Part shown: positions 1-18,059 of the stretch, one piece after another
Position numbering within the stretch: position 1 is the first letter of the stretch
Layout: each line of letters opens with the position of its first letter
IMG/VR virus record: IMGVR_UViG_3300048938_000061
Length of the DNA: 64,000 nucleotides
Reading direction: 5' to 3' (one strand)
From: a virus
Lineage: Duplodnaviria > Heunggongvirae > Uroviricota > Caudoviricetes
Notes under the pieces: model-generated
What the model saw: only the letters and a program-made list of their open reading frames with translations
What the model was told of the DNA's origin: nothing
The model's database searches: none
Made by a program: the position numbers and the translations under genes

Positions 1-249
1 TCAGATTTTAAGATCTTGAATAAATCGATGCTCACAATTGAAAACGCCTGCTTCATTGAGTATGTCGTGTGTCCATCGATAACGACGGTAAACAGATTTA
101 GCCTGATCAAGTAGCTCAACTTGCCCACATAGATACTGCCGGATAACCTCTAAATCCTCTTTAGGTATCGCTACATCAACAAAATCTCTTAATTGTTGAG
201 AAGCTGGCTGCACCTGCAAAAATCCAAAGAATTCATCCCACAAATTCAT
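1..249 (-). CDS. hypothetical protein (82 aa); last gene of a 3-gene coupled operon
   Basis: Complete ORF with its stop at 1..3. Its start overlaps the upstream gene stop (246..249, ATGA-type overlap). No recognisable motif. Confidence 0.45.
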   Translation of the reverse strand: MNLWDEFFGFLQVQPASQQLRDFVDVAIPKEDLEVIRQYLCGQVELLDQAKSVYRRYRWTHDILNEAGVFNCEHRFIQDLKI

Positions 250-662
250 AGGCTTCGCTCTTCCACTGCTGTCAGAATGCGTGCGGGATCAACATTTGAT
301 GTCAGCCCATCTTTCTTCACCGAGATTTGGGGTAGCGGCCCCAAACCAGCGCGCCGACGCATTTCGTCAAGTGGCACGGTTTTATGAATTTCATCAATAA
401 TAAGCCGCCTACGATTGCTGAAATCAGGAAGCAGCGGTGGCAGGTGCTTTAACATCCGCTTGCCGAAATCAATGACATATACGAGTGGAAGAACAACCAC
501 AAAGATGACCACTAATGGGATCATCGTAATACGCTCACAAATTTTATAGAACGCCGCTTTATCAATTAGATGCCTGATCTCAGGACATGCTTTTGCAACT
601 TTAAACTCAGAATAATATCCGCGTCGTGGCGAAATATATCGCCAAGGAAAGAACGGCTTCAT
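246..662 (-). CDS. hypothetical membrane protein (138 aa)
   Basis: Hydrophobic stretch 'MIPLVVIFVVVLPLVYVI'. Its start overlaps the stop of the upstream phosphoesterase gene (659..662). Confidence 0.55.
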   Translation of the reverse strand: MKPFFPWRYISPRRGYYSEFKVAKACPEIRHLIDKAAFYKICERITMIPLVVIFVVVLPLVYVIDFGKRMLKHLPPLLPDFSNRRRLIIDEIHKTVPLDEMRRRAGLGPLPQISVKKDGLTSNVDPARILTAVEERSL

Positions 663-1495
663 AGCCGCCCTCCTTGGAATTGGTATCTCGGATCATTTAG
701 ATCAATCACAAGGTCAAACTGATAATCTCTGTTTTCATTCACATATCCGCGTGGATTTACAACCACATGGGTATCGTGAACTTGATAATCGAACGAATTG
801 TGGACATGTCCATGAAGGCACAAATGAGGTCTGTACTCATAAATCATATCATCAAGATTCGATACGAAGGACGCGTTCAACGGATCATTTGCATATCGAC
901 TATGAACAGACAATGGATGAACACCATGATGCGTAACCAGTACCGTTTTACCTGCAAAAGGTTCTGCCAAAGCTTTTTCGAGGTATGCCCGAGAAGCGAC
1001 ATGCATATCCAAAATATGCTTGGGATTAAGGCGCGTGTAAGGCTCTTTTCGGTACTTGATCTGATTGAAATCATTCATCGAACCTTTGGCATGTAACATG
1101 CCTAAAGCCTGGTCACCCATGAGCTTATAATCAGTCCAAAGGGTAGCTCCAATGAAACGGACATCACCGATAACAACTTGGTCGTTCTCAAGAAAATGAA
1201 TGTTCGGAAATCTTGTTGCGGCTTTCTTGGCTTCAGCAAGACCATCAACAAGAGAACCCTTATAATATTCATGATTACCCGCCACATAGATCGTTGGAAC
1301 ATGAACATGTTCGGCAAGCCACTCGATTCCTCCTGCTGGCGATTTGTTAACAAGGTCTCCAGTGCATACACAGACATCGATATTCTCGGGCATCTTGAAA
1401 CGATACGAGATGTCGTCGACTTCCAGATGCAAATCAGATAGTGGCCAAATTCTCATTAACGGACTCCTTCTCATTATTATATGCCCGAATTTCAC
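659..1495 (-). CDS. metallophosphoesterase, calcineurin-like (Icc/CpdA-like architecture)
   Basis: Ordered motifs 'LSDLHL' (DxH), 'CTGDLVN' (GD), 'AGNHEYY' (GNHE), 'VTHHG' and 'HGHVH' (GHxH). Paralogue of 12484..13293. Confidence 0.85.
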   Translation of the reverse strand: MKFGHIIMRRSPLMRIWPLSDLHLEVDDISYRFKMPENIDVCVCTGDLVNKSPAGGIEWLAEHVHVPTIYVAGNHEYYKGSLVDGLAEAKKAATRFPNIHFLENDQVVIGDVRFIGATLWTDYKLMGDQALGMLHAKGSMNDFNQIKYRKEPYTRLNPKHILDMHVASRAYLEKALAEPFAGKTVLVTHHGVHPLSVHSRYANDPLNASFVSNLDDMIYEYRPHLCLHGHVHNSFDYQVHDTHVVVNPRGYVNENRDYQFDLVIDLNDPRYQFQGGRL

Positions 1496-1689
1496 ATTAT
1501 ATCAATCATCAGTTTTAAAAATGAATTCGAGACTTCACTTATTAATGTTGAATATGTCGGTTTTTTGGAGAATATTAATACCGGAAATATTCCTGCGAAC
1601 GCAATTTAACGATTTATTTTTTCGACCAACCTTTCCGATCTTTATTTTTGATCAATTATTTAGGCTGAATAAGTCAAAAAGGGATAACA

Positions 1690-2577
1690 ATGACCTATCA
1701 CACCAACGGTTACGACATTCATTCCTCATCTTTCGATAAAAGCATCAATTATTCTAAATTGACCAGTGATGGCGGAATGATTGAAACACGCTTTGTGCAA
1801 AGGTTAAAAGATCGATTTATCGTTTACATATCTTCAATGTCAGGATGCGATAAAGCATGCCGTTTCTGTCATCTAACCCAGACAGGCCAAACGATGGCAA
1901 TGAATCTCACGCGCGATCAAATGCTTGAACAGGCTGAGACGGTTTTATCTTCGTCCGCATATCCCGAAGCCACGACTGTTCATTACAATTTCATGGCGCG
2001 TGGAGAGCCGATGACCAATCCGATGGTCAATAAGCATCTATTCCATGATTTGAAACTGGCGGCCGAGAAACGCGGACTGTTTCCACGCATCAAGATCTCC
2101 AGCATTCTACCAACCGATTTTCATGCTTTCGATCCAACATCTCTATGGGATGAAGAAAGTCCCGCGATTGACTTCTATTATTCACTCTATAACCCCGATC
2201 CGGCCTGGCGCAAACGCTGGATTCCGAAAGCCCTGCCCCCGGAAGAAGCTCTTGCATGGCTTGCTAAGTGGCAGCAAGTCACAGGCAACCGCGTCATTCT
2301 ACACTGGGCGCTAATTGATGGTGAAAATGACACCGAATACAATGCACGTGAGGCAACACGTCTAGCGAACGAAGCTGGCCTAAATTGGGATTTCAATCTC
2401 GTTCGATATAATCCTGCCAATGGTAAATCCAAGGAAGCATCCGAAGATCAGATCGAGCGTTTTCTATCAGTTCTACGCAACGAGGTCAGCGATGCAAACC
2501 GCGTAAAGGTCATCCCCAGGGTTGGTTTCGACGTCAAAGCGTCATGCGGGATGTTTCTAACACCTGAGGCGGCGTAA
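1690..2577 (+). CDS. radical SAM enzyme, RlmN/Cfr-like, lacking the N-terminal domain (295 aa)
   Basis: 'SGCDKACRFCHLTQTG' (Cx3Cx2C) at about residue 50. C-terminal 'KASCGMF' resembles the RlmN C-terminal 'AACGQL' Cys motif. The protein is about 80-100 aa shorter than canonical RlmN. Confidence 0.7.
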   Translation: MTYHTNGYDIHSSSFDKSINYSKLTSDGGMIETRFVQRLKDRFIVYISSMSGCDKACRFCHLTQTGQTMAMNLTRDQMLEQAETVLSSSAYPEATTVHYNFMARGEPMTNPMVNKHLFHDLKLAAEKRGLFPRIKISSILPTDFHAFDPTSLWDEESPAIDFYYSLYNPDPAWRKRWIPKALPPEEALAWLAKWQQVTGNRVILHWALIDGENDTEYNAREATRLANEAGLNWDFNLVRYNPANGKSKEASEDQIERFLSVLRNEVSDANRVKVIPRVGFDVKASCGMFLTPEAA

Positions 2578-2597: not shown

Positions 2598-3431
2598 TTG
2601 TTTTCTACACTGATGGAAATGGCGTCCTTCAAGGCACACCCACGTCAGCATATAAAACGCGTTGAACAAAGCGCACAGGAAGCAGATATGGACATTAATA
2701 CCCTTAAAAATCGAGTACACGAATACGTTCAAAAGCAGATTGATGACGACATTTTTGAACGTCCACTAATGGCAAAAGCATGCATTAATAATGCTATCGA
2801 TTATGCTCTCGGCAAAGGAACAAAAAACGAGGTGTCTCTTCTCCATAAAATGACGCTTCTTCTTCAGCTGCCAGATTTTGATACATTCAAGTTAGGCTAT
2901 TCTTCGGTCGACCCTGATGACGACCTATCAAGTTTTTTTGAGGCAATCTTCAACAATGAGATTGCTTCAATGTTCAAGGAAACGCAGGCGAAAATTTCTG
3001 CAACGTCAATTGAAAGACACCTGCTCACAGACGCAGAATATGTGTTGGAGATCGCTAATTATCGAGAAGATAGCAAATTTATCGACAGAATGGCGCGCAA
3101 TCAAATCCGTGCTGCTGTCAGTCATCTAAAAGAAGGAGCCGCAGATACTGTGGACGTAGCAACAGCCATTGAATCTGGAAACATTCTGCAAACTCTACTA
3201 GCGCACCGAAATGATCACAAACTCCATGTGATACACGGCACGTCAATCGAACGTATTGATCAAATCACTGAGAAACTACGCCAACTTAGAGTGCTTGCTC
3301 GACCACATCGCCATATGGGTTGGGGCAAGGATGCCATGAATAAGAACATTCTTGAATTGGTTGCTGACCTAAATAATTCTAGAGCTGCTACAAATGAACT
3401 TGATAAAAGCGATACAGCAATGAAAATGTGA
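2598..3431 (+). CDS. hypothetical protein (277 aa)
   Basis: Long ORF four codons downstream of the radical SAM gene. No recognisable motif. Confidence 0.6.
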   Translation: MFSTLMEMASFKAHPRQHIKRVEQSAQEADMDINTLKNRVHEYVQKQIDDDIFERPLMAKACINNAIDYALGKGTKNEVSLLHKMTLLLQLPDFDTFKLGYSSVDPDDDLSSFFEAIFNNEIASMFKETQAKISATSIERHLLTDAEYVLEIANYREDSKFIDRMARNQIRAAVSHLKEGAADTVDVATAIESGNILQTLLAHRNDHKLHVIHGTSIERIDQITEKLRQLRVLARPHRHMGWGKDAMNKNILELVADLNNSRAATNELDKSDTAMKM

Positions 3432-3713: not shown

Positions 3714-6700
3714 TCAGAACTTAATTTTTAGGCCAACGTTAAACGAAGTCGCCGTCTTCCCGCCATCTGTTGGGATTGCGACTTCACCGCCACCGTAAAT
3801 CGACAGCTTTTCATTGAAGTTGTATTCTGTGCTTAGACCCAAAACCACATTGGTTTTCCCACGGCGAGCACCATCGGAAGTGAAATCTGTGCCGCTTAGC
3901 GAAAGATCACGTCGAGACTTCGTAATATCATGCGTCACAGCAGCCTTACCATAAATGCCAAGCGTTGCTCCATTCTTGCCAACCGTCTTTTTGCCGCCAA
4001 TCTTTACGCCAAACTCAGGGCGGAAAAGGTCCGTGCTGGACTTACCAGCTGAAACGCCACCAATACCTGCTTCAGAGAAGCCATCCGTACGCGAATAGAT
4101 GTAAGTGCCAGCAACATAAGGCGTCACAGTGAAATGGCCAATCTTTGCGACATCGTAACCGATGTCCACCTTAGCGGCGAAAATGTTGCCATGGTAATCT
4201 GTGCTGAGATGATCGCCGAGACCGAATATGGAACGGGTGGTTTCGAACTTCTGCCGACCGTAAGCCACCTGACCATTCAGTGTCCACATGTCGTGGGTGT
4301 AGCCGAGATAAGCGCCACCGAAATAGGTGTCTATATTATTATCGTCAGCCTGACCAGACACCTCGACCTTCATCGTGTTCCAGCCAGCATAGGCACCAGC
4401 AACAAGATCACTGGTGATGCGCTTGTCCATTCCAAATACGACACCGCCCAAAGAGTAATCTACGTTTGAAGCTCCTTTGCGACCATTCAGACCACCGACA
4501 CCACCGATACCGTCCATCCAGAGGCCAGTCGCCATATCGTGATCAAAACGCAACTGGTCAAGACGGTTACTCACACGTGACATAGGGGTTTCAATAGCCA
4601 CCATGCTTGCCTGAACAATCGAAGGGTGTACATCGCCGGAAATTTCCTCAAGCGCATTCTTCACAGCTCTCGCGGTATCGAGTTGCTGAATACCAGCTCC
4701 GAGCTTGATAAGATCATTTGACGCCAATACGACAGAAGTTTCCCCTGTCTTGTCAGCCTGGGTCTCGACGCTGTTTTCAATCATGGTCGCCGATTTACAA
4801 CCGTTTTCGCTTTCACAGACACTACTCTGCGTAATAGGGGTCGCGTCATAGCTGACAACGACATCATTACCAGTCAGATGATATGCCCCATTAACGAGAT
4901 AGGTCGGGCGGAAGTCAAAACTTTCAAAGTCACCTGAAATACCGCCTGCAGCTGTCATAACGCTGGTCTGACCTGTGCGGACGTAAGCATTTTCCACGCC
5001 GTCAATAGCCAATAGACCACCATTGATGGTTGCGGTGCCTGTTACATCAAGATTGGAACCTAGAACAACGGAAAGCGCGCCGCCGTCATTTACGTAGTTG
5101 CCGTTAACCCGAAGCGTGCCCGTATACGGCCAACCTGCATGCAGAATGCCTTTCGAGATCACATTACCGAGCTGTCCGTCCCCACCAACAATACCATTGA
5201 CACCGATACTGGTGTTTCCTGTTATAGAGCCGTTGACCACCAGCGCACCATCATTGACGGTAGTTCCGCCCGTGTAACTGTTATTCCCTGTCAAACGAAG
5301 AATGCCGCTGCCGTTCTTAACAAGGCCGCCTGCTCCAGAGATGTCGTTTTGCCAGACAGAGCCTCCGGAGAACGATACGTTGAAATCTCCCCAATCGAAC
5401 TTACCAGGACCGCGTATTGCCTTGGCAACGTCAACCATCCCGTAACCGAACACTGGATCAACTCCAGGCGCTCCGATGTCGCGAGCCGTACCAAGCAATA
5501 CCTGACCAATCTGGTCGCCCTTCATATATGGAAACACCTGCTTTACAAGAGCAGCTGAGGCCGTAATGACGGGGGCGGCGGCCGATGTTCCCGCAAAGAT
5601 ATGGGCATCATTTTGATCGGCATGTCCAGGCATATATAGACTAACTGGAGCGGCCAGACACCAACGAGCCACTGGACCACATTTGTTCGAATAGTATTCA
5701 AGATCACCATTATCGTTGGTCGCAACAACTGTCAGGTAACCACCTGTTTGCAATCGAGCATCCGTCAATTGCAAAGCGCCCCAATTGCCCGGATAATCCA
5801 GGGCGTCATTTGATGCGGACCAAACCATTAGCATACCATGCTGATCAATATACTTAGCAGAAATCTGACGTAATAGATCTAGTCCTGCAGAAGTCGAAAA
5901 CCCGTTGATAGGCAATTCCCAAGCTTTAACGCCAATGCTATGGTTTATAATGGTCACACCATCGACAAGCATATTTGCGTAAATCTGGTCGAATATTGAA
6001 TAAGAGATATAGCCATCAGTATCAAAAAGATGCGCTTGAGAAAGCTTTACACCCGGAGCTATACCACCAGCATAGCCAGTGTTGTTTTGCCACGTTGAAT
6101 CTGTATTACCAGTGATTATCATTGAAACGCTATCACCATGTCTTGTTTCAGTTTGTGTGCTGTTAGTGACATAGTTTCTTGTTGCGATGATTTTACCCTT
6201 CAGATGGATTCCTTCTCCACTAAAACCAGAATCCAAGGCACCAACGATAACATTTTGACCTGTAACGCCACGCGCATAGGCGTCATGAGCACCAATTGTT
6301 GTCATTGTTTTCGAAGTCTTGGTCTTATAAATGACAGGTATTTGCCATTCAGCAAGCCGAGGGACAGGAACGGTCGCAAGAAACTTGCTCGCTGACCGTT
6401 CAATACCTGTCACACTGTCAGCAATTGAACGACCAGCATCTCTCAATGCGTCAATGGCTTGCCTACCGACATTGTCGGTATATCTCAATGATGGAGCATA
6501 TTTGGCACCTTGTTCAGAGAAAGGAGGATTTTCACCAGGAAACGTTGAAGGAGGCGTCCAACCGCCAGAACCTCCGCTTCCTCCTGAGCCGCCATTCCCA
6601 AGTTCTGTATTATTATTCGAACCACCGTCATCGCCACCACCGCTACAAGCTGTCAAAAACGATGTTGCAAGAAGAGCAGAGATTAGTAGCGTTTTTCGTA

Positions 6701-6794
6701 AATTAGTGGTTTTCAAGATATGTCCCCAAATAAAATAAGCGCGAAGGCCTTCTATGAAGTGATTCATTGTCCATTCAATATTTATTGGCTGCAA
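3714..6794 (-). CDS. autotransporter (type Va) with S8 subtilisin-like serine protease passenger domain; probable lipoprotein
   Basis: Signal peptide with lipobox 'LTAC' and a Gly/Ser-rich linker. Catalytic triad contexts 'ALDSGF' (Asp), 'HGDSVS' (His) and 'GTSAAAP' (Ser). The C-terminal beta-barrel ends '...GLKIKF'. The true start is probably the internal Met 'MNHF...'. Confidence 0.85.
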   Translation of the reverse strand: MQPINIEWTMNHFIEGLRAYFIWGHILKTTNLRKTLLISALLATSFLTACSGGGDDGGSNNNTELGNGGSGGSGGSGGWTPPSTFPGENPPFSEQGAKYAPSLRYTDNVGRQAIDALRDAGRSIADSVTGIERSASKFLATVPVPRLAEWQIPVIYKTKTSKTMTTIGAHDAYARGVTGQNVIVGALDSGFSGEGIHLKGKIIATRNYVTNSTQTETRHGDSVSMIITGNTDSTWQNNTGYAGGIAPGVKLSQAHLFDTDGYISYSIFDQIYANMLVDGVTIINHSIGVKAWELPINGFSTSAGLDLLRQISAKYIDQHGMLMVWSASNDALDYPGNWGALQLTDARLQTGGYLTVVATNDNGDLEYYSNKCGPVARWCLAAPVSLYMPGHADQNDAHIFAGTSAAAPVITASAALVKQVFPYMKGDQIGQVLLGTARDIGAPGVDPVFGYGMVDVAKAIRGPGKFDWGDFNVSFSGGSVWQNDISGAGGLVKNGSGILRLTGNNSYTGGTTVNDGALVVNGSITGNTSIGVNGIVGGDGQLGNVISKGILHAGWPYTGTLRVNGNYVNDGGALSVVLGSNLDVTGTATINGGLLAIDGVENAYVRTGQTSVMTAAGGISGDFESFDFRPTYLVNGAYHLTGNDVVVSYDATPITQSSVCESENGCKSATMIENSVETQADKTGETSVVLASNDLIKLGAGIQQLDTARAVKNALEEISGDVHPSIVQASMVAIETPMSRVSNRLDQLRFDHDMATGLWMDGIGGVGGLNGRKGASNVDYSLGGVVFGMDKRITSDLVAGAYAGWNTMKVEVSGQADDNNIDTYFGGAYLGYTHDMWTLNGQVAYGRQKFETTRSIFGLGDHLSTDYHGNIFAAKVDIGYDVAKIGHFTVTPYVAGTYIYSRTDGFSEAGIGGVSAGKSSTDLFRPEFGVKIGGKKTVGKNGATLGIYGKAAVTHDITKSRRDLSLSGTDFTSDGARRGKTNVVLGLSTEYNFNEKLSIYGGGEVAIPTDGGKTATSFNVGLKIKF

Positions 6795-6924: not shown

Positions 6925-7386
6925 ATGGCCGTAGAAATTGAACGAAAATTCCTAGTAAAAAACGACAGCTGGAAAGCACGCGTCGTCAGCAGCTATCACA
7001 TTATTCAGGGATATCTCGTTGGTGAGCCAAAACTTGCAGTCCGTCTTCGCATCATCGACGACAAGGAAGCCCTTCTTACGATCAAGGGCAAGGGTGAAGG
7101 CATCGCACGACCTGAATACGAGTACCCGATCCCGCTCGTAGACGCCAAAGGAATGCTCTCAATGTGCGGCACACGCATCCTTGAGAAGACACGTCATCTG
7201 ATCAATGCAAACGACGGCCTCAAGTGGGAAGTTGATGTGTTTGCTGGTCGGCACGCTGGTCTCGTACTTGCTGAGATCGAATTGCCAAGCCTCGACACCA
7301 ATGTCGAGTTGCCTGAATGGACAGGCGAAGACGTAAGCGAAGACCCCCGTTATCTCAACGCTGTGCTAGCCATCCCTGCCGAGTAG
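6925..7386 (+). CDS. CYTH-domain protein (CyaB/ThTPase-like triphosphate tunnel metalloenzyme)
   Basis: N-terminal 'EIERKFLV' (the ExExK hallmark of CYTH). 153 aa. Confidence 0.8.
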   Translation: MAVEIERKFLVKNDSWKARVVSSYHIIQGYLVGEPKLAVRLRIIDDKEALLTIKGKGEGIARPEYEYPIPLVDAKGMLSMCGTRILEKTRHLINANDGLKWEVDVFAGRHAGLVLAEIELPSLDTNVELPEWTGEDVSEDPRYLNAVLAIPAE

Positions 7387-7419: not shown

Positions 7420-8226
7420 CTACGACATCTGCATGGCAGGTTGGTAGTCATCCAGAAAGGTTATGCAGCTGTCGTCGAATCCAGAATTGATGAATTCGGC
7501 CAAGTCATCAAAGAGTTCAGCACTCTTACCGTGCCAATTAAGATGAAAAAAATCCTGAGCATAGCGCTTGTTATTTGACAGGAAAGTCTTGAGAGCTTCA
7601 AAATCACCATTGATATCGCGATCCTCATCGACGCCCTCTTCTACTGCTCTCCCGAGCGCGTTGAGTTTTTCTGACATCTGGCCCTCAGTAAGGCCGCCAT
7701 ACGAAAACTGATAATTCCCGGCCATCCCGACGCAAATGTCTTCAACGTAAGCGACGTCAGCCCCAACGGTTTTCAGAACAGTATGCATGTCATCCAGACA
7801 CTCGTCCGCAAATGCACCAACGAGATGGACCTTCTTGTCTTTCAGACTGTGATGCCATGGATCGATTTCAAGAATGTGCCCGTCACCTTCGTCGTAATAT
7901 GGACGGGTCGCGTCACACCACGTAATTCCACGGTTCTCTTCAGATATCTGATCGGGATCATAATCATATTGATCCTTGGTCCAGCCATATCCGTATTCGA
8001 AACGACGGAACTGAATACCTTCTTCTCTGCAAAATTCCTCAATTCGCACTTGTTGCCATTCGACCTCGTCTACGTCGTAGAAGGACATGATGACTTCGTC
8101 TAGGTTATCTTTGTTGTTGTCGAGGAAGTCCATGATTTTCGACAACTCAACTTCTATATCGGTACCGAATTTATTCAATCCGGCGTCCCACATTTCCTCG
8201 AAATGATGAATAACAAGTACAGCCAT
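7420..8226 (-). CDS. hypothetical acidic protein (268 aa)
   Basis: Long ORF, very Asp/Glu-rich. No confident family. Confidence 0.55.
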   Translation of the reverse strand: MAVLVIHHFEEMWDAGLNKFGTDIEVELSKIMDFLDNNKDNLDEVIMSFYDVDEVEWQQVRIEEFCREEGIQFRRFEYGYGWTKDQYDYDPDQISEENRGITWCDATRPYYDEGDGHILEIDPWHHSLKDKKVHLVGAFADECLDDMHTVLKTVGADVAYVEDICVGMAGNYQFSYGGLTEGQMSEKLNALGRAVEEGVDEDRDINGDFEALKTFLSNNKRYAQDFFHLNWHGKSAELFDDLAEFINSGFDDSCITFLDDYQPAMQMS

Positions 8227-8235
8227 ATTGCCTGC

Positions 8236-8850
8236 TCACATTGCCATGGCAGGCACTCTCGAAAGCTCGCGGTGAGCAACGAGGCCAGCAGTGATATCAC
8301 GGACTAGCGGGGTATCCCGAAGCCTCTCCAGGAAGAATTCCGGCTTGAGCAAATAGCTTTCCTTCGGGTCCATTCTGAAGCTTAGTGAACCGTCATCAGC
8401 CATATCGAGGATGTAGCGCATACGATTGAGCTTGTAGCCGTCATTGATCACGCCCAAAGCGCCTTCAGGATGAGCGTCGACCAGCTGGCAGATGTGTTTC
8501 TCAGCCTTGCTGCGGCTGCTACTGTCAATTATGATGTCTAGACGGATCAGAAGTTCGAGGGCGCTCTTTTCGTCAGGTGAGATGAAACGAGAATTAGCGT
8601 CGACCCAAAGATGTGGGTAGCTTCCAGTCGCTTTATGAAAATTATCGAGAGAATGTTCTGCTACGTAGATATTCCCATTGTTCCAGTCACCATTATCACG
8701 TCTATAATAACGGTACATAAAGGCTGGACCGCCCATGGTCACGCCGTACGAAGCCCCGCCCAGATCGACTTCCGAATAATTATTATCTCTTTTATGATAA
8801 AGAGTACGACCAGATAATACGTCTTCAATAAAAGCCGGAACCATTCTCAT
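8236..8850 (-). CDS. hypothetical protein (204 aa)
   Basis: Long ORF 10 nt downstream of the previous gene. No motif. Confidence 0.55.
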   Translation of the reverse strand: MRMVPAFIEDVLSGRTLYHKRDNNYSEVDLGGASYGVTMGGPAFMYRYYRRDNGDWNNGNIYVAEHSLDNFHKATGSYPHLWVDANSRFISPDEKSALELLIRLDIIIDSSSRSKAEKHICQLVDAHPEGALGVINDGYKLNRMRYILDMADDGSLSFRMDPKESYLLKPEFFLERLRDTPLVRDITAGLVAHRELSRVPAMAM

Positions 8851-9083
8851 TCTAATTTCTCACTATTCATTTTTATTTCACGAGCAACGAAGTAAATTGA
8901 TCGATCTTATCAACATGATATTTTTCGATCAGTCGTATGCATTCAACAAGTACAAAAGACCAATCTTGTAATCGTAAAATATCTTTTCAAAAATGAGCTA
9001 AGCAGATGCAAATACATAAGCAATCAGGCGGTTATTAACCGCCCGACATCAATAATCATATTCATGAATTTAAGACACAAAAA

Positions 9084-9332
9084 CTAGCTGGCGAGTGAAA
9101 GAGCAGCCAGAGTTTTATCCAATGGTTTCCAGTGAGGACAAGTCCATTTGGATTTACGCTCACGACCGCTTGGAAGAATTCCGAAATCACACGAAGATGG
9201 CTGGTCAACGTCGATCACACAGCGCCACGGCTTTTCTCCCTCTTCGTGATCAACAAAACACGAATAACGAACACCTCGTTTGTAATCAGATTTGTTATCA
9301 GCGTCTAAACTGCTCTCAAAATTATCTTCCAT
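9084..9332 (-). CDS. small Cys-containing hypothetical protein (82 aa)
   Basis: ORF with six Cys. Only intermediate confidence that it is coding. Confidence 0.35.
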   Translation of the reverse strand: MEDNFESSLDADNKSDYKRGVRYSCFVDHEEGEKPWRCVIDVDQPSSCDFGILPSGRERKSKWTCPHWKPLDKTLAALSLAS

Positions 9333-9686
9333 ATAAATAAATCCTTTTTGAACTAGTTACGAAAATTTAAGGTGGCAGTCAATATTTCGTTTTTTAATCG
9401 GAGTAGAAAATACAATTTAGACGTAGTAAATTTCGAAACAATATGATGCTTTAAAAGCTTAGTAGGGTCGGCGGGCGTATTAGCAATCTCAGATTAAAAA
9501 GCGAGGAGATTCATAAACAAAACCTTCCTTTCTTCAAAATTTTAATTTAAAAATGCGTGCGGCTTTTTATACAATCATGCCATCTACGATTTTGTATAAA
9601 TTCCATCTGCCGTCAATAATAGTTTCCAGTTTCAATTAACTTTTTGTAGTCCAAATGCTATCGCTTTCTAAATAAACATTATACGA

Positions 9687-10469
9687 CTAATGCCAGCCTG
9701 GAACACGCAGGTGCCGTCCTGAACCTTCTTCTTTGCTCCACCGTATGACGTCGCGTATATGTGACAATATATCATCGGGGACTTCCTGACCTTGTCGAGC
9801 ATTTCCATATTTGGTATATAGAAAATCGCGTTGTTGTTCCAGTTCTTCTTCCGATTTAACTCTAGCATAGTCACCGCGTCTAATGCCGAGTTGAAAATCG
9901 GATTTACATATCTTGCTTTTCTCTGCTTGAATTTTATTGAGGGCTTGCGTAAACCTCGGTTCTGCTATTCCAGTCCCACAGGTCCATTCATAATCCATAT
10001 ATTCACGTGAACTGTATGAACCGACTTCGATGCCATTTATTTCCAAATCATATCCAAACTCAGTCGGAACGATGTCCGGACATATACCAGAAATTTCTTC
10101 CATAAATGTTTTTGCGTCGAGCATGATTTCGAAATCATTGCCATCACAAGCTTTGGTGTCGAAAAGTTCAACCTTCATGAAATAAGGTTGATGCGTTGCG
10201 TCAAAGACAGGCTCTTTTCGAAAACATGGTGTCAGAGATACGAATTTCCCTTCGCCGAGCGTCCCATTCATCAATGCATCTACAAAAGACTGCTCTGAAG
10301 ACCCGACGAGCAATCCGAGATTTCTTAACTCATAAGTTCGGCTGAGATCATCCAGTGTTGAACTAACAGCTTCAATGCTCGCATGCCATGGCAGATCAAC
10401 GCGCTTATAACCAAGATTTTCATACCAATTGAGCGCTTTGACAAGGAACTCCCAGTTAACGGCGACCAT
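9687..10469 (-). CDS. class II aminoacyl-tRNA-synthetase-like catalytic core (SerRS-like paralogue without tRNA-binding arm)
   Basis: 'TPCFRKEPVFDATHQPYFMKVELF' parallels the SerRS motif 2 of this same window ('[28 protein letters not shown]'). 'GTGIAEPRFTQALNKIQ' parallels motif 3 ('GSGVAVGRLLIAIMENYQ'). Only 260 aa. Overlaps the upstream gene by 14 nt. Confidence 0.55.
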   Translation of the reverse strand: MVAVNWEFLVKALNWYENLGYKRVDLPWHASIEAVSSTLDDLSRTYELRNLGLLVGSSEQSFVDALMNGTLGEGKFVSLTPCFRKEPVFDATHQPYFMKVELFDTKACDGNDFEIMLDAKTFMEEISGICPDIVPTEFGYDLEINGIEVGSYSSREYMDYEWTCGTGIAEPRFTQALNKIQAEKSKICKSDFQLGIRRGDYARVKSEEELEQQRDFLYTKYGNARQGQEVPDDILSHIRDVIRWSKEEGSGRHLRVPGWH

Positions 10470-11274
10470 TAGCGAATGCCCTTGCTGTTACTGCAGCCAT
10501 ATCAAGAAGACTCTGAAGTGAAATCGATGGATGATGCTTGTTCAGGTAAGCTTCTATGGCACCCTGAAGGTCGGATAACTCTACAAGCGCCATTATGTCC
10601 ACGCCCTGCTTGACAGCATCCATGAACTCATTGACCTCTTCCGCAATCTTTGAAGGTTCTCCAAGGATGCCCTTCTCGATATCCGTGATGTGATAACCAG
10701 GTCTCGCCTGCTTTGGCAAAAGGTCAGCGATGTAATCCCAGAGCATATTGGGTGCAATCTTGCGTTCAAACGGACATACAGACGCCGCATTCACCTCCCG
10801 GATAACGTTTGCCAAATCTTTGGTGACTGGACCGCGTTCAAGATAAGTGACCGCCTTCGTGGCGCGAATACGATGAAACCCAGTTTCTGCAAACTCGTAG
10901 CTGGTGCCAGCGCTCATGTGGTAAGTGCTACCCTGTCGAAGAAAACCACGTGCAACCGGAACAGGGTCTTTGCTTTCACCTGGCTTACAGGACACCTGAA
11001 TAATTTCATGGTCTCCATCTGGAGCGTTTTCGATAAACCATTCTTCATGAGTTATCTTGCCAAGCAAGATATGCGAATGAAATCGATATCGATGATCGTG
11101 AAGCTCCTCTTCAGGAGTGTCCGCGAGCAAATCAGGATGCCAGAAATGAATTCGAGTATCATCCGTGAGCTTTAGCTGAATAAATCCGAGGCCAAACCAA
11201 TGCGGTGTCGTGCCGAATGAACGCAGGTGATCGACGTCCAGAAATTGGTCTAAACGGCCATCAAAAATACTCAT
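10456..11274 (-). CDS. two-domain protein: His-rich N-terminal domain (cupin-like?) fused to MazG-like NTP pyrophosphohydrolase domain
   Basis: C-terminal 'AEEVNEFMDAV...LVELSDLQGAIEAYL' fits the MazG/HisE all-alpha EExxE...D pattern. The N-terminal region has 'HFWHPD...HDHRYRFHSH'. Confidence 0.5.
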   Translation of the reverse strand: MSIFDGRLDQFLDVDHLRSFGTTPHWFGLGFIQLKLTDDTRIHFWHPDLLADTPEEELHDHRYRFHSHILLGKITHEEWFIENAPDGDHEIIQVSCKPGESKDPVPVARGFLRQGSTYHMSAGTSYEFAETGFHRIRATKAVTYLERGPVTKDLANVIREVNAASVCPFERKIAPNMLWDYIADLLPKQARPGYHITDIEKGILGEPSKIAEEVNEFMDAVKQGVDIMALVELSDLQGAIEAYLNKHHPSISLQSLLDMAAVTARAFANGRR

Positions 11275-11374
11275 AACGAAACCTCTTTTTTTTGAAAATA
11301 TATTGCATTGGAAGTCTTATTTATAAGGCAGTCAACCATTTTTCGATTATTCGCGATTTAATAATAAAAATGGG

Positions 11375-11410
11375 GTCCGAATAAATTTCGAAGCCCCTGA
11401 GATCACTTTA
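11375..11410 (-). terminator. probable rho-independent terminator for gene 11424..11996
   Basis: 'GGGGtccgaataaatttcgaagCCCC' hairpin, followed on the minus strand by a T/A-rich run. Confidence 0.4.
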
Positions 11411-11423
11411 TTTATGTTTAAAA

Positions 11424-11996
11424 TTAAAGGCGGCTTGCTTGAATATACGAAGCCGAATATTCTTCGTCGCCTCCATACTGTGTCACCTCATTTATTTGCG
11501 CGACGACGTCGGAAAACAGGCCTATATCGTCAGTTTTAAGAGCAATTTCCAGATTATTGTAAATATTTTGAAGAACATTTAGCTTATCTGTCTCAGAGGC
11601 TCTCAATTTCGAGGAGTCGACGGTATATGGAGCGACGATATTGAAGTTATCTTTGACAACTTCGATTTGTTGCTTCATTGAAGTAGCGAGTTCAATTGCA
11701 CCTTTTACGTCGCCATCTTCTAACAAGTCACTCAGATGCCAATAATTCTCATTTAAGGTTACAAGTTCGCCCTCAATCAACGCACCATCTTCAAAGTGAC
11801 TGTAGCTCAATGGATAGTTATCGCCTTGAATATTAGGCGAAACAGCATTGCTGTTAATATAGATCGCGCCTGTGAGAGCAACAGCTGTCACAGTGGCAGT
11901 GAAAAGCCTATTCTCAGCAGCTTCAGCCATCCATTCTGAAAGTTTTGACATCGAATTTCCTCCCGAGGATTTATCGTCATTATTGTTCACCGGCAC
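11424..11996 (-). CDS. hypothetical secreted/membrane-anchored protein (190 aa)
   Basis: N-terminal hydrophobic segment 'LFTATVTAVALTGAIYI'. No other motif. Confidence 0.5.
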   Translation of the reverse strand: MPVNNNDDKSSGGNSMSKLSEWMAEAAENRLFTATVTAVALTGAIYINSNAVSPNIQGDNYPLSYSHFEDGALIEGELVTLNENYWHLSDLLEDGDVKGAIELATSMKQQIEVVKDNFNIVAPYTVDSSKLRASETDKLNVLQNIYNNLEIALKTDDIGLFSDVVAQINEVTQYGGDEEYSASYIQASRL

Positions 11997-12074
11997 GCGA
12001 CTAACAATTAAAAATCGTGCTTGCCGATTTTATACGTGTAACATACATTTATGTAACAAAGGCGAGAATTGCGT

Positions 12075-12461
12075 ATGACCAGAATTGAACGTCTATTGAT
12101 TATTTGTTTACTTGTTTCAAGATCCATGGAAGTCGAAAAAACTCTTGAATTTGTGGATGTAATTGAAAGTGGATGCCTTGCACATGAACAAGATTCCATC
12201 CAATACAAAAATAATCTGGTCGCGGCCGCAAAGACTGCACCACTTGACGACAAATATCGGCCAATAATGATGATGTTGTTCCAAGCTCATCAATTGGAAA
12301 ACAAAATTGATCTTTTACAGAAACATGAAATTCATCTGGAGAAAATCCTGGCAACGCTTCGACATCCCGCTCAAAGCCGAATTGCTGAAAAAATATTAAT
12401 TCAAAAGCTATCAGATTTTGTGAAGTATCACCCGTCATCTGAAGCGACACAAACTGGCTAA
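12075..12461 (+). CDS. hypothetical helical protein (about 128 aa)
   Basis: Coding-like composition. 'aaaggcgag' lies upstream of the ATG at 12075 (alternative TTG at 12069). Preferred over the overlapping antisense ORF 12100..12480. Confidence 0.4.
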   Translation: MTRIERLLIICLLVSRSMEVEKTLEFVDVIESGCLAHEQDSIQYKNNLVAAAKTAPLDDKYRPIMMMLFQAHQLENKIDLLQKHEIHLEKILATLRHPAQSRIAEKILIQKLSDFVKYHPSSEATQTG

Positions 12462-12483
12462 TATTCGTAAGGGAGACCATTTT

Positions 12484-13293
12484 TTAAAGTTCGATGACTT
12501 TACCGAACTCAAATTTTTCGTTTTCAGCGCCATAGCCCCGAGGGTTGCAAATCACCCTTGTGTTGCCAACATGGTAATCAAATGGCTGATGAACATGTCC
12601 ATGAACCCAAAGGTTAGGTTGATGTTCTTCAATTAAATCTGACAAATCAGAAACGAAAGCTCCATTCGTCGCATCGCCTTCAAATTTCGGATGAATTGAA
12701 GCTCTGTGTGGAGCATGATGGCTTACTACAACCGTTTTGCCATCAAAAGGTACCGCCAGAGTGACGTCGATGAAACTCCTCGTCTCTTGGTGAAGAGTTA
12801 CAAAGTCAGAAGGAAGTGCAAGCCTTGGAATGATGCCATCGCCTTTAGGAGCCTTTAAATAAATATTGCTGTAGTCCGACAGCCCATTTTTAGCGGCCCA
12901 CATGGCTTTTTGGATCGCTACATTACGCTCCGCTCCTGCTTCAGGGGCATCAATTGCAAAGTCAGTCCACAACGTGCCACCAAGAAAGCGTACGCCTTCA
13001 ATGATTTCAACACCGTTATCAAGGAAAGTCACATCTAGAGCGTTTGCGATAAGCCGCGCATTTTTGCGACCGCTTTCGATTGATGTATCATAGAATTCAT
13101 GATTTCCTGGCACCCAGATGACTGGCATTTTTGGCCTGACGACTTTTCCCACCCAGTTAATCGCAAGATGCATTGAATCGGTGACATCGCCAGCCAGAAC
13201 ACAAACATCAGCCTGCGGGTATCGATCAGGCTTTATCAACCGGATCGCGTCCTTCTGTGGGATATGTAGGTCAGATAAAATCCAGATACGCAT
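12484..13293 (-). CDS. metallophosphoesterase, calcineurin-like (paralogue of 659..1495)
   Basis: 'LSDLHI', 'LAGDVTD', 'PGNHEFYD', 'VSHHAPH', 'VHGHVHQPFDY'. Clear end-to-end similarity to 659..1495. Confidence 0.85.
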   Translation of the reverse strand: MRIWILSDLHIPQKDAIRLIKPDRYPQADVCVLAGDVTDSMHLAINWVGKVVRPKMPVIWVPGNHEFYDTSIESGRKNARLIANALDVTFLDNGVEIIEGVRFLGGTLWTDFAIDAPEAGAERNVAIQKAMWAAKNGLSDYSNIYLKAPKGDGIIPRLALPSDFVTLHQETRSFIDVTLAVPFDGKTVVVSHHAPHRASIHPKFEGDATNGAFVSDLSDLIEEHQPNLWVHGHVHQPFDYHVGNTRVICNPRGYGAENEKFEFGKVIEL

Positions 13294-13390
13294 ATGTCTT
13301 GATTACAGGATCAGAATTACTCGGTCAACGATTTAAATATTGACAATAATTATTTATTTAAATAAATGGTCCTTAACAAAGGACATAATT

Positions 13391-15019
13391 ATGAGTTTCC
13401 CCGTTCCAAATGCTATTTTAAATGAACTTAAGCATGACGATTTCTCAAAAACACAAAGTCTTTATTCTAATACGGCGAGAGATCCCGACAGAGAGGTTAA
13501 AATTGACCTTTCAAAGCTATCTGATGACGCTGTTTATGAGCTAGCTGCAGCATTCGAGCAGGCGGACATCATGAAAAATGTACGGATGCTGAATTCAATT
13601 CTTGATTCACGCTCTGGGAAAAAAGACCAGACGGTCAGAGGACTGGAAAGCTTACCAGACCTCCTTAAGAGTTACCTAGAAGTTGAACAAATCAATAAAT
13701 GGATTTTCCGTCGTGAAAAAGATGGGCAGCTTTATCCATATCTCGTTAAAGCCATTCAGATGTGCTCCGATGACAGTTTTCGTCAGACAGACAAAGAAGA
13801 TCAGTTTGTCATCATGCGCCTCGTCTCTTACAGCATTTGCGACGATGGAAAGATGGGAACAAAGTCCGAAACGATCTCGTTTCATCGGCATCACGTATCC
13901 AATCGCAGGATTTCCAAAATCCTGTCCGATTTTGATCTTTTCAAGGAGACAAAAGAACTGATCGCTGAGTACGAAGCTCAAGTGGAGCGTTATCGTGAAA
14001 TCATTATGCCTGGATTTTCGCAGCAATTTGTTGCCACCGGACAGACCGTAAAGATTGGCTATAGCGGCAAGGACACTTTTTTAAACAAAACACGCGTCAT
14101 TCACGACCTGTCTTCAAAAGATTTTGGTGCTTATAACGACACCATGGACGCTGAGACGAAGACCAATCACAATGAAAGCTTCCCGTGTCCATTGCATCCT
14201 ATGGTCAAGGTTTTCGATCTTGAATCTCATGATTTCCATTGGATCAATGGCAATATGGTGGAGCCATATGTCTATAAAAACCTACTCAATCATCTGGTTT
14301 TGCCAGAAACCCATCACGACCTTCTGGAAATGCTTACTGATGACCTGACAGACTTCTCGAATGATTTCGTTGAAGGCAAGGCAGCTGGAAACCTGATTAT
14401 CTGTAAGGGGCCTCCAGGCGTCGGCAAAACGCTGACAGGTGAACTGTATTCAGAGCATAAAAAAGTGCCTCTAATCGTATTACGCGCGGGCAAACTCGGC
14501 ACTACGGTTGCTGAAGTCACAAAAGGAATGAAGCAATACCTGGAATGGGCCACGAGGTGGAATTGCCCTATCCTCGTTAATGAATGCGATATCTACATTG
14601 CCAAGCGCAGTGATAATATCAATCTGAACGCAATCGTCGCCGAAATGCTGCAGTTGGTTGAGTACTATCCTGGCCTGCTCTTTATGACGACAAATCGTCC
14701 TGACGATATCGATGATGCGTTCGTCAGTCGTGCGTTGGCAATTATCAATTACGCAGCACCTGAAGGAAATCTCGTGGACGAAAGCTGGCGTCAGATTGCT
14801 TCTCTTCATGATTTGAAAATGGACGAAACTATGATCATGTCTCTCAAACAGCAATTCCCAAGCATCGTTCAGAGAGACATGAAGATGCTTCTGAAACTCG
14901 CAATGAAAAGATCGAAGCGCAGCCGAGAACCGATTACTCCAGACTTGCTACGCAAGATGGCAATGTTCCGAGACATCAAGATGTCGGCAATTGAATTAGG
15001 CACTCCAGATAACCAATAA
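13391..15019 (+). CDS. AAA+ ATPase (classical AAA clade) with about 340-aa unknown N-terminal domain
   Basis: Walker A 'GPPGVGKT'. Walker B-like 'ILVNECD' (Asn in place of the usual Asp). Sensor-1/Arg-finger region 'TTNRPDDIDDAFVSRA'. The start is probably 'MSFPV' (RBS 'aaagga'); the ORF track extends to 13340. Confidence 0.8.
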   Translation: MSFPVPNAILNELKHDDFSKTQSLYSNTARDPDREVKIDLSKLSDDAVYELAAAFEQADIMKNVRMLNSILDSRSGKKDQTVRGLESLPDLLKSYLEVEQINKWIFRREKDGQLYPYLVKAIQMCSDDSFRQTDKEDQFVIMRLVSYSICDDGKMGTKSETISFHRHHVSNRRISKILSDFDLFKETKELIAEYEAQVERYREIIMPGFSQQFVATGQTVKIGYSGKDTFLNKTRVIHDLSSKDFGAYNDTMDAETKTNHNESFPCPLHPMVKVFDLESHDFHWINGNMVEPYVYKNLLNHLVLPETHHDLLEMLTDDLTDFSNDFVEGKAAGNLIICKGPPGVGKTLTGELYSEHKKVPLIVLRAGKLGTTVAEVTKGMKQYLEWATRWNCPILVNECDIYIAKRSDNINLNAIVAEMLQLVEYYPGLLFMTTNRPDDIDDAFVSRALAIINYAAPEGNLVDESWRQIASLHDLKMDETMIMSLKQQFPSIVQRDMKMLLKLAMKRSKRSREPITPDLLRKMAMFRDIKMSAIELGTPDNQ

Positions 15020-15044
15020 ATAACAAATAATTATCATTAATGAG

Positions 15045-15090
15045 GCTGTCCGATTAAAGTCGAGCGGCCTTATTTTTTGAATAATGCTTA
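15045..15090 (+). terminator. possible rho-independent terminator (imperfect)
   Basis: 'aggctgtccgattaaagtcgagcggcct' imperfect hairpin followed by 'tatttttt'. Confidence 0.3.
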
Positions 15091-15174
15091 AATATCACCG
15101 GAATCTCTACAATAAACCTTGCGGACTCTTTATTGCTTTGGATATCATTAACCCTCAAATGATGAGGTTTTATT

Positions 15175-16374
15175 ATGTCCAGCATTCCAACTTTTAAAAT
15201 TAAAAATTACGACAATAGTGGAAATTATATATACGATTTAAATATGGATGCCGTCCTTTTAAGTATGGACACTCGTCGCGCTTTTACCGTTCTTGAGAAA
15301 CTGGCGAATGGACAAAAGAATGTGGGATATCTTCCCTTATATAAGGGTCTACCGCGACATCATCTTGAAGACCTGATGTCGATTAATTCCAATAATGTCA
15401 TTGATTATGACCTTTCTCTTGAAGCTAAAAATTTCTTTGACAAGCTCGGCGGGAAGTCTGGCTACCGCCAGTTTGTTGAACTCAATCGATATCGCGATAC
15501 CCTGGAGCGTAAAAAGGATCGCATTTCCCAAGAAATGATTGACCTTAACGCTGCAAATTTCATTCTGGCTCCAGCATCAAAGAACGAGATGCTTTATGAC
15601 CATCTCGGAGAAAAAGGCGGCGATGTTGAAACATTGCTTATGCAGTACAACATGCCAAAAGAAATTTTCGAGATGAGTGACACACCGGACCGTCACAATG
15701 CATTCGAAAAATGGATCAGAGATAATGGCCGTCCTTATGCGTGGGATACATTTCGCAATGATTGGAATGGCATCTCTGTCGATGACGTCCTAAGCTGTTG
15801 GGATGATATCTACGACGAAGACAATCAAGATGAAAAGCTTTCGAACCCTGAACTACTCAATCAATTGATAGCTGATGTAAAGGCAACCATCGATTGCCAA
15901 CTTGAAACGGACCATTATGAAGATGCCCAATACGAAGTCGTCGACATCAAAGAAATAGACGAAATAATCACGAATTGGTTCAATCAGAAAGACGCGAACA
16001 AGCCGACAGCTGACCAGAAACTGAAAGAAGAGCTAGCCTCCTGGGGAGAAAAGCAGTCCATCACGTCATATCAACAAGATAAAGGCACATTCGTTGGGCT
16101 TCATCCGAACGTAACAGCACTGGAATGCAAGCAATTTCTGGAACGAGAATTTTCAAAACTGCGCATAGAGATCGACAACATCGACACCATGTGGCGTCAG
16201 CCACTGTCAGAAGGAGTTTACGAGCTATCTGAAAGGCTGTCATCCTCAGGGATTTGGCTAACCCATGGGCCATATGACCCGAAGTATCGAATTCGTTCGA
16301 CGCCGGATAATCTGGATGCCGATTTCCCGACACTGGAACTTGCAGTAGAATTTGCCGAGAACATCAATCGATGA
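15175..16374 (+). CDS. hypothetical protein (399 aa)
   Basis: Long ORF. Its stop overlaps the start of the next gene by 4 nt. Confidence 0.6.
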   Translation: MSSIPTFKIKNYDNSGNYIYDLNMDAVLLSMDTRRAFTVLEKLANGQKNVGYLPLYKGLPRHHLEDLMSINSNNVIDYDLSLEAKNFFDKLGGKSGYRQFVELNRYRDTLERKKDRISQEMIDLNAANFILAPASKNEMLYDHLGEKGGDVETLLMQYNMPKEIFEMSDTPDRHNAFEKWIRDNGRPYAWDTFRNDWNGISVDDVLSCWDDIYDEDNQDEKLSNPELLNQLIADVKATIDCQLETDHYEDAQYEVVDIKEIDEIITNWFNQKDANKPTADQKLKEELASWGEKQSITSYQQDKGTFVGLHPNVTALECKQFLEREFSKLRIEIDNIDTMWRQPLSEGVYELSERLSSSGIWLTHGPYDPKYRIRSTPDNLDADFPTLELAVEFAENINR

Positions 16375-16973
16375 GATACAACCTCTTACCACTTGACGAC
16401 CAGTTCGCAGCGATCATGGATCATCTCGATACATTGAGAGATGAAAACCACCCTAAGGAAATGCGTCCAAGCTATCTTCGGGAACTTGTGAAGCAAGCAA
16501 GCAAGCGCGATGACCTCCCACGAGACAAAGTTTGTCGCTGGCTTGGCTATTGCTATGGCATAGTGATGGCACGGCACAGCAGCCTATCGCAGATATTTTC
16601 GTTTAACGAACCAAAACTTGTTGATGATTTATCGAACCATCCTGTGGTTATGGCGTCATTGGAAATTCTAAACCATTTACAAACTATCATCCAAAAGAAC
16701 GATAAAATCGTTCGATATGCCGATAATTTCCCCAATACTGAGAATGTTTACGCACCAATTTTAATTGAAGCATTGATCGATTATACAAAAAAAGACGCAA
16801 AACTAATTGGTGTAAATGCTTTAAGTCTTCGTCTTGGATTAATTCAAGGCTACATGGTCGCTTATAACTATATCGACGTTGACCAGGAACGTAATTTCAC
16901 CAGGCCTTTATTTCACAAAGCCTACGAAAATATTGGGATTGTGCCACCAAGAAGTGTTTCTGTTAGTGTCTAA
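16371..16973 (+). CDS. hypothetical protein (200 aa)
   Basis: ATGA-type coupling to the upstream gene. Confidence 0.55.
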   Translation: MRYNLLPLDDQFAAIMDHLDTLRDENHPKEMRPSYLRELVKQASKRDDLPRDKVCRWLGYCYGIVMARHSSLSQIFSFNEPKLVDDLSNHPVVMASLEILNHLQTIIQKNDKIVRYADNFPNTENVYAPILIEALIDYTKKDAKLIGVNALSLRLGLIQGYMVAYNYIDVDQERNFTRPLFHKAYENIGIVPPRSVSVSV

Positions 16974-16985
16974 AAGGAAATCACC

Positions 16986-17516
16986 ATGCTGGATATGCAA
17001 AATGTAAATGTTTCCACAGACGCAGCGCTCTCCAATTATACGAGATGGGCTAATTCAGGGTTTTGGGCCAGCTTTTTTCAGCTGGACTTTAATGTTCACT
17101 CATTTAAATCCATAAAGCTACCTAGCGCTAACGTCCGGGAACGTATGTGCAATGCCATGATGGCTAATATCAGCACGGTTTCGCCCTCTCAAATGAACAA
17201 TCGCTTGAGCTTCATGGAAGCTGTCTTGGATGCAATGAGAAAAAGAGAAAGCTTATTGTTGAACCACTATTTCACAATGCGGAAGCACGGCGTTAACGTC
17301 CTGTTTTTATGTTCTATCTCAATGGCGTTTTTGACGTTCGCAATAGGTATGCAGAATAGCCCGCTTTCCCTTGTTATTTCCTCGATGATCGCGATATCTG
17401 CAATCTTGGGCTACAGCACTGCCAGAAATACCTTCAAGAAAAAGTATAATAAGATACAAAGTATCGCAAATGATCCTGGTGAACAGAGTAATTACATTTT
17501 ATGGGAAGAAAAATAA
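16986..17516 (+). CDS. hypothetical integral membrane protein (176 aa)
   Basis: Hydrophobic helices 'VLFLCSISMAFLTFAIG' and 'LSLVISSMIAISAILGY'. Confidence 0.55.
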   Translation: MLDMQNVNVSTDAALSNYTRWANSGFWASFFQLDFNVHSFKSIKLPSANVRERMCNAMMANISTVSPSQMNNRLSFMEAVLDAMRKRESLLLNHYFTMRKHGVNVLFLCSISMAFLTFAIGMQNSPLSLVISSMIAISAILGYSTARNTFKKKYNKIQSIANDPGEQSNYILWEEK

Positions 17517-18046: not shown

Positions 18047-18059
18047 GACTTCGCGAGGT

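Follow-up and report, generated by a model that had tools for sequence, protein, structure and literature searches.

Several described metallophosphoesterases bear on the locus considered here. PptH (Mycobacterium tuberculosis Rv2795c, PDB 6UNC) is a phosphopantetheinyl hydrolase (PMC8557913). CpdA/Icc enzymes, which are 3',5'-cAMP phosphodiesterases, belong to the same superfamily and have a similar length, and their name is given in the source database to homologues of the present enzyme. The phage enzymes of phrog_1649, exemplified by Caulobacter phage Cr30 gp033, CcrColossus gp102 and proteins of Brevundimonas jumbo phages, are of the same size and carry the same motifs, and the candidate PDC-S10 has been reported by PADLOC in jumbo phages (bioRxiv 10.64898/2026.04.22.720137). 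The stretch analysed (64,000 nucleotides of IMG/VR record IMGVR_UViG_3300048938_000061, ‘the window’) begins with three minus-strand genes encoding such a phosphoesterase (PE1), a membrane protein (M138) and an 82-amino-acid (aa) protein (S82); PE2 denotes a paralogue of PE1 within the window. The three genes form a predicted translationally coupled operon that is inherited together in relatives, and members of the same enzyme family adjoin a different partner, an AAA+ ATPase, elsewhere.

PE1 (659..1456, minus strand, 265 aa) is a calcineurin-like metallophosphoesterase that adds to a known superfamily and to a phage-associated clade yet to be characterised. It matches PF00149 at 5e-13 (50.4 bits against a gathering cutoff of 21.5) and phrog_1649 at 2.7e-51, the latter with residues 1-251 of 265 on profile positions 36-284 of 308, PHROGs having no curated cutoff. 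The motifs D8-x-H10, G33-D34, G60-N61-H62-E63, H176 and H215-G216-H217-x-H219 are all present, and the metal-binding and catalytic motifs are invariant across a 47-sequence alignment with the exception of G216, which is nearly so. With its motifs intact and a confident AlphaFold2 model (predicted local distance difference test, pLDDT, 95.7), PE1 is predicted to be catalytically competent. The best fold match to this model in the PDB is PptH (6unc; TM-score 0.73, Foldseek E 6e-11, 18% identity), other solved metallophosphoesterases reaching a TM-score of 0.56 at most. Both PE1 and PptH are stand-alone enzymes of ~270-310 aa with a binuclear metal site and a shared fold that includes a cap region, and PptH is the sole PDB sequence match of note. 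That match, however, covers only the N-terminal 65 residues by hidden Markov model (E 2.8e-4), and the likeness, judged on a model, is one of fold and not of family membership. No phosphopantetheinyl transferase (PptT) or carrier-protein gene was recognised among the scanned neighbours in the window and in the loci of relatives. The phrog_1649 phage enzymes are 35-39% identical to PE1 over 95% of the protein; they differ in lacking any homologue of M138 or S82, whereas PE1 is chromosomal and stably inherited. PDC-S10 is matched by PE1 at 5.7e-14 and by PE2 at 4.4e-12, although the best-scoring stretch is confined to PE1 residues 1-107 and the candidate itself is an unvalidated, single-gene one.

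A sequence-only reading of the window had proposed a coupled operon of three genes, and three consecutive minus-strand open reading frames (ORFs) with both stop/start overlaps are indeed present. Its start for the phosphoesterase, GTG 1495, was that of the longest ORF and proved wrong. The coding sequence is taken to begin at ATG 1456 because a ribosome-binding site, GAAGGAG (1464..1470, minus strand; read from the sequence), lies 7 nt 5' of that codon, with an (A/G)GGA core invariant across 7 aligned relatives; because all PE homologues aligned begin with M[KR][IL]W; because the JGI gene call for PE1 is 265 aa; and because GTG 1495 is unconserved among relatives. The stop codon of PE1 (TGA, 661..659) shares bases with the start codon of M138 (ATG, 662..660), as does that of M138 (TGA, 248..246) with the start codon of S82 (ATG, 249..247), and each junction has the sequence CTATGA. 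A Shine-Dalgarno sequence for M138, AGGAGG (669..674, minus strand), is embedded in the 3' end of PE1, in the codons of its tail (...QFQGGRL), and another, GGAAGAG (264..258, minus strand), precedes the S82 start. The S82 stop codon occupies window bases 3..1, and on the source contig (L001, a 1.0-Mb JGI metagenome contig) a convergent 163-aa gene follows 35 nt beyond the end of S82; the operon therefore has three genes. No convincing terminator was found inside the operon, where two weak hairpins within M138 are at chance level, or downstream of it.

A promoter-like site occurs only 5' of PE1 (1476..1505, minus strand: -35 TTGATA at 1505..1500, an 18-nt spacer, -10 TATAAT at 1481..1476). It matches the consensus at 11/12 positions, the count of such sites in the region not being above that in shuffles, and its TTGnCA and GCATAnA blocks are kept in 7 relatives; it is tentatively assigned, from the letters, as the promoter of PE1. 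Taken together, the common strand, the two 4-nt overlaps, the internal Shine-Dalgarno sequences, the single upstream promoter-like site and the conservation in relatives agree with the coupling that had been proposed, and the three genes are accordingly predicted to be a translationally coupled operon. PE1 and its close relatives also possess a 12-residue C-terminal extension, NDPRYQFQGGRL (window 659..694), which is missing from other homologues and modelled at pLDDT 57. The PRYQFQGG of this tail is likewise kept in relatives and missing from other PE homologues, and conservation of the extension may reflect translational coupling instead of protein function.

Other assemblies yielded loci of relatives (L003-L007 and L088-L093). 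The three genes occur together in all the relatives examined, eight distinct loci of which most are at saturated synonymous divergence (dS), and the order PE-M-S is syntenic in L003, L005-L007 and L088-L093. At L007 the contig ends within PE, leaving just its C-terminal part visible, and the order is kept despite differing flanking genes; at L093 the third gene is uncalled, yet its DNA is identical to that of L092, where the start is GTG. The 4-nt PE-M overlap is retained in all relatives in which both genes are complete, and the junction between M138 and the third gene is ATGA, GTGA or a gap of 11-26 nt. Pairwise Nei-Gojobori estimates of the ratio of non-synonymous to synonymous divergence (dN/dS) among relatives were 0.04-0.08 for PE1, 0.07-0.21 for M138, 0.16-0.45 for S82 and 0.04-0.09 for the divergent gene upstream, described below, synonymous sites being saturated between the deeper pairs. 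These values mark all three operon genes as coding and subject to purifying selection. No DNA nearly identical to the window was found in plasmid and phage collections, and the source is an uncultured bacterium represented solely in JGI, ENA and Logan assemblies.

M138 (246..662, minus strand, 138 aa) had been labelled a membrane protein, correctly: it has one hydrophobic segment at ~aa 46-66 (465..527, minus strand; Kyte-Doolittle 19-residue mean 2.83), predicting a single-pass protein. It has no match in Pfam, NCBIfam or PADLOC, and among 31 members of its family one alone had a match, a marginal one, in PHROG (E 0.0099). A word-index search found 9 close clusters and a HMMER profile search 35 clusters at 50% identity. 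Family members, two short fragments and a protein of 979 aa excepted, are 93-141 aa long; they share the architecture PWRY..PR..YFR...IAR.CPEIR - transmembrane segment - PDF...R...I..AH...P..EIR.R.G, in which the soluble parts on either side are conserved and the sequence of the hydrophobic segment is variable; a comparable segment was present in 31/31 members analysed. Mean net charge is ~+5 in the N-terminal part and ~+1 in the C-terminal part, a difference that by the positive-inside rule suggests a cytoplasmic N-terminus. As to a phage lysis protein (holin or spanin) as a possible model for M138, one remote homologue (L100, below) has a tail-lysozyme-like gene on one side and a hydrophobic ORF on the other, unlike the rest, and no family model was matched.

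S82 (1..249, minus strand, 82 aa) is a small soluble protein with the motifs WG[DE]FF ... [DE][IL][DE]VI ... YR[RK]xRW. It fell into 2 clusters in 5.8 billion proteins, that is, one besides its own. A weak but consistent homology nevertheless links it to the third gene in each of the relatives and to a gene of 84 aa at a remote locus, L097. The third gene encodes 82-85 aa in the clade of the window and 100-109 aa in other relatives, and is only 27-30% identical between clades at a divergence where PE1 remains 80-84% identical; S82 is the fast-evolving, least constrained gene of the operon. To judge from the libraries searched and a literature search, neither the M family nor the S family has been described, nor has the cassette that they form with PE and the divergent gene.

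That gene (1690..2577, plus strand, 295 aa) encodes an RlmN/Cfr-like radical S-adenosylmethionine (radical-SAM) protein, which matches TIGR00048 at 2.3e-20, with a score far below the cutoff, and phrog_27142 at 6.4e-85. Wherever the locus of a relative reaches beyond PE on the upstream side, the gene is found there in the same divergent arrangement, as it is in the distant L097, and it is a probable fourth member of the cassette. The protein is without the N-terminal ~80 residues of RlmN/Cfr. In comparison with Cfr (PDB 9p0p) it has Tyr (‘VYISS’) in place of Cys (‘FCISS’) just before CX3CX2C, as do all relatives, at what is presumably the position of the resolving Cys of known enzymes (RlmN C118); the C-terminal Cys, which we take to be the methyl carrier position, is kept (‘ASCGMF’ against ‘AACGQL’ in Cfr). 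Homologues at 40-44% identity occur in the jumbo phages 201phi2-1, Psa21 and CcrColossus and in Brevundimonas phages. Between the two divergent operons, the shared region 1457..1689 holds the blocks AATATTC and ATTCAA in the 7-relative alignment and, on that pattern, would have a regulatory role. The two blocks lie ~21 nt apart and may be an operator or a radical-SAM promoter.

For more distant occurrences of M, a degenerate DNA pattern was derived from the family alignment, validated on known loci and run on a metagenome collection, where it gave 5 matches, 1 of them false; cluster look-ups added more, to a total of seven remote loci. L097 (63% GC) carries a radical-SAM fragment divergent from PE (52% identity), followed by a 76-aa ORF, M (36% identity), ORFs of 81 and 88 aa and the S-like 84-aa gene. 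Within this high-GC cassette (8990..10417, minus strand) the 76-aa ORF exactly bridges PE and M, overlapping the PE stop and ending where M begins, and the 81-aa and 88-aa ORFs are both 3' of M. L094 shows the C-terminus of PE and then M, and has the 88-aa ORF after M in common with L097. M lies at the contig edge in L095, with only 257 nt upstream and an integrase-like gene (a weak Pfam match) near. A divergent gene is upstream of M in L099, whose 0.9-kb contig has no PE. L100 (534..1068) consists of a TIGR02594/tail-lysozyme-like gene, M and a 65-aa hydrophobic ORF (two transmembrane segments, read by eye), and in L101 (1426..2446) a DNA methyltransferase is directly followed by M. In L102 (5001..5698) M stands before a DUF3850 RNA-binding protein, in a phage-like array of small genes. 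The homologues in L100-L102 are located among PHROG-matching genes.

The enzyme family extends well beyond these loci. At least 3,324 PE homologues were counted, on Rhizobiales chromosomes, on 130 plasmids, several of which have multiple copies, and in 186 phage records, with few exceptions of 150-440 kb; it is a family mainly of large or jumbo phages, plasmids and alphaproteobacterial islands. A set of 80 distant loci from GTDB species genomes (34-50% identity to PE1) was examined for partners. An AAA+ ATPase, either FtsH-like with an M41 domain or of a 520-530-aa type, adjoins PE on the same strand in 34/80 of them, often with a 4-nt overlap and in one case apparently fused; a DUF6634 protein is also found in 21/80. 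On plasmid pRlBT01c of R. leguminosarum, such an AAA-PE pair (QMO81_RS35210/35205) adjoins a CBASS system. These Rhizobiales modules resemble the present operon in using the same PE family (40-50% identity) and in their tight coupling by 4-nt overlaps, but differ in that the partner is a 520-770-aa AAA+ protein and not a pair of small membrane and soluble proteins. The adjacency looks like an apparently uncharacterised two-gene module, a literature search having found nothing relevant on AAA+/metallophosphoesterase modules or defence pairs, or on DUF6634.

Within the window, PE2 (12484..13293), the only paralogue found by comparison of genes across 1-20 kb, is 40% identical to PE1 and is divergently paired with a 559-aa AAA ATPase (13340..15019; IetA-like, 5e-11) that weakly matches the AAA partners elsewhere. 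The 126-aa gene after PE2 was rejected as an M138 analogue, having no hydrophobic segment and no similarity. A neighbour-joining tree places M-linked PEs in a single super-clade with the AAA-linked PEs of Mesorhizobium, as would fit an exchange of partners by a conserved enzyme.

The reading that we tentatively prefer, though with somewhat less than even confidence, is one of functional partnership, in which the operon is an accessory cassette derived from phages or mobile elements and its enzyme has interchangeable partners. A single mRNA would start from a promoter ~20-50 nt 5' of ATG 1456, with translation of M138 and S82 coupled through the two CTATGA junctions. PE1 would be a cytoplasmic binuclear metallophosphodiesterase and act as the effector; M138, through a conserved 45-aa, putatively cytoplasmic N-terminal domain, would be its tether or gate at the inner membrane; and S82 would serve as an adaptor or regulator of PE1. 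In this bacterial lineage and in at least one distant high-GC one, PE1 is inherited in a cassette with M138, S82 and, across the shared divergent promoter region, the radical-SAM enzyme, while elsewhere an AAA+ ATPase would fill the equivalent accessory role, so that one enzyme would operate with interchangeable partners. The model builds on the reality of the genes, the intact catalytic motifs of PE1, coupling, co-inheritance and partner variation; its proposals on physical interaction, membrane topology, substrate and biological role are what we infer from them. The role is most likely to be in phage or mobile-element conflict or in nucleic-acid end processing, and not housekeeping, because large phages and plasmids supply the gene pool, because an AAA-PE pair stands beside CBASS and because of the ligase and tRNA contexts in phages, PE homologues adjoining an RNA ligase, a DNA ligase or tRNA arrays in 4/6 phage genomes inspected.

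A number of observations weigh against partnership, or against the role proposed for it. M138, S82 and radical-SAM homologues were found in 0/80 of the distant PE loci, as was any small transmembrane ORF immediately downstream of PE, and no membrane partner is seen at PE2, the next gene encoding a non-membrane 126-aa protein. The gene immediately upstream of M is not PE in 4/7 remote loci (L099-L102), three of them phage-like arrays, and since the M of loci without PE is no more distant from M138 than the M of PE-linked loci, M may act independently of PE. The M family was absent from searches of isolate phages, plasmids and IMG/VR, and the AlphaFold2 model of M138 is poor (pLDDT 64). Overlaps of 4 nt occur elsewhere in the window, for example at 16371..16374 and 49403..49406, and such an overlap alone is not unusual; the promoter assignment is tentative because the predicted -10 would put the transcription start almost on the ribosome-binding site. 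With regard to role, no recognisable defence gene lies in the window neighbourhood of PE1, the locus is stably syntenic across species and not variable in presence, and the strong purifying selection on PE1 makes a non-conflict role possible. On the main rival reading, M138 and S82 would be independent small accessory genes of mobile elements that became fixed 3' of PE1 and are co-transcribed with it only through genome compaction, PE1 acting alone, as seems to be the case for most of its relatives. The commonness of 4-nt overlaps in the window, the 80/80 PE loci without M and S, and the occurrence of M without PE, after the methyltransferase (L101) and the TIGR02594-like gene (L100) and in the phage small-gene array (L102), all favour such simple adjacency, and each cassette component is also found without the others. 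We nevertheless regard it as rather doubtful. PE lies next to M in three lineages whose GC contents are ~20 points apart, and two of these have the complete radical-SAM/PE/M/S set, which local synteny alone hardly explains; moreover, saturated dS notwithstanding, both the overlap of PE with M and the Shine-Dalgarno sequence within the PE tail have been kept. The earlier suggestion that the phosphoesterase acts with a membrane partner is thus partly supported: PE and M occur together in every relative examined and in L094 and L097, but not in the 80 distant PE loci or in the four remote M loci just named. From this pattern of co-occurrence, the partnership appears to belong to one PE sub-lineage and not to the enzyme family.

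Other proposals concern what the enzyme does. The metallophosphoesterase domain of bacterial Pnkp removes 2',3'-cyclic or 3'-phosphate ends from RNA substrates in end-healing. By analogy, the locus might be an RNA modification or end-healing cassette in which the radical-SAM enzyme would modify tRNA or rRNA adenines, PE1 would remove such ends and M138 and S82 would be accessory. Linkage of radical-SAM to PE in two distant lineages agrees with this, as do the phage PEs beside RNA ligase (Cr30), within tRNA arrays (CcrColossus, S-CRM01) and beside DNA ligase (Serratia phage BF), and of 27 phage records with radical-SAM, at least 11 also have PE. However, these phages are related jumbo phages and so not independent observations, the gene contexts in phages vary and are anecdotal, PE1 has neither a ligase nor a kinase gene nearby, and a weak Tpt1 hint for the gene after radical-SAM failed; the proposal is accordingly held to be quite improbable. 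Still less credence, amounting to a slim chance, is given to a toxin-antitoxin or abortive-infection module, in which PE1 would be a toxic phosphodiesterase or nuclease restrained by S82, as antitoxin or sensor, at the membrane via M138. A mycobacteriophage metallophosphoesterase that is toxic and damages host DNA (PMC12287305) offers a possible analogue of PE1; dN/dS reaches 0.45 in S82, which is evolving far more rapidly than PE1 (0.04-0.08), and PE1 matches a PADLOC candidate. Set against these are the majority of PE homologues, which have no small downstream partner, and a window in which there is no defence context and the locus is stably syntenic. Finally, a housekeeping cyclic-nucleotide phosphodiesterase of the CpdA/Icc kind is suggested by the JGI names ‘Icc-related predicted phosphoesterase’ and ‘CpdA’ on homologues and by a weak NCBIfam CpdA match (3.1e-08). 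That match scores 33.4 bits against a curated cutoff of 225, which rules out the CpdA/Icc equivalog (NF008359); the CpdA-type structure Rv0805 is less similar to PE1 than is PptH (TM-score ~0.49 against 0.73), and the distribution in phages and plasmids is unlike that of a housekeeping gene, making this identity highly improbable.

Should the partnership hold in its widest form, radical-SAM, PE, M and S would make up a membrane-associated system of four components that had gone unrecognised, built from genes of jumbo-phage type and shared by distant bacteria. In it a PptH-like phosphodiesterase would work under a small membrane protein and a fast-evolving adaptor, an AAA+ ATPase being swapped in elsewhere, and the whole would constitute a new modular family for defence, counter-defence or RNA targeting; we consider this unlikely. 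If, on the other hand, the cassette is a lineage-specific operon of an ordinary phosphodiesterase, its value is that of local annotation only. In either case two new small-protein families missed by current domain libraries are defined, and the differing partners of a PE clade that is widespread in large phages and plasmids and found beside defence genes provide a handle on the function of that clade.

The remaining observations concern the surroundings of the operon. Scans of the window for tRNA genes and Rfam families gave no matches. The gene that follows radical-SAM (2598..3431, plus strand) probably starts at Met31 (2688) and not at TTG 2598, since 6/6 relatives begin there. It contains an invariant RNDHKLHVxHGTxIERIDQ motif and has no family or PDB match; a Tpt1/KptA identity, weakly hinted at (E 0.035), was unsupported by a PDB profile search. 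Further along, window positions 7420..19412 hold a long run of ORFs without Pfam or PADLOC match (268, 204, 260, 272, 190, 126, 399, 200, 176, 181 and 177 aa). This orphan-rich region, which also has an S8-peptidase autotransporter (3714..6794) and a CYTH protein (6925..7386), is at least partly syntenic in relatives.

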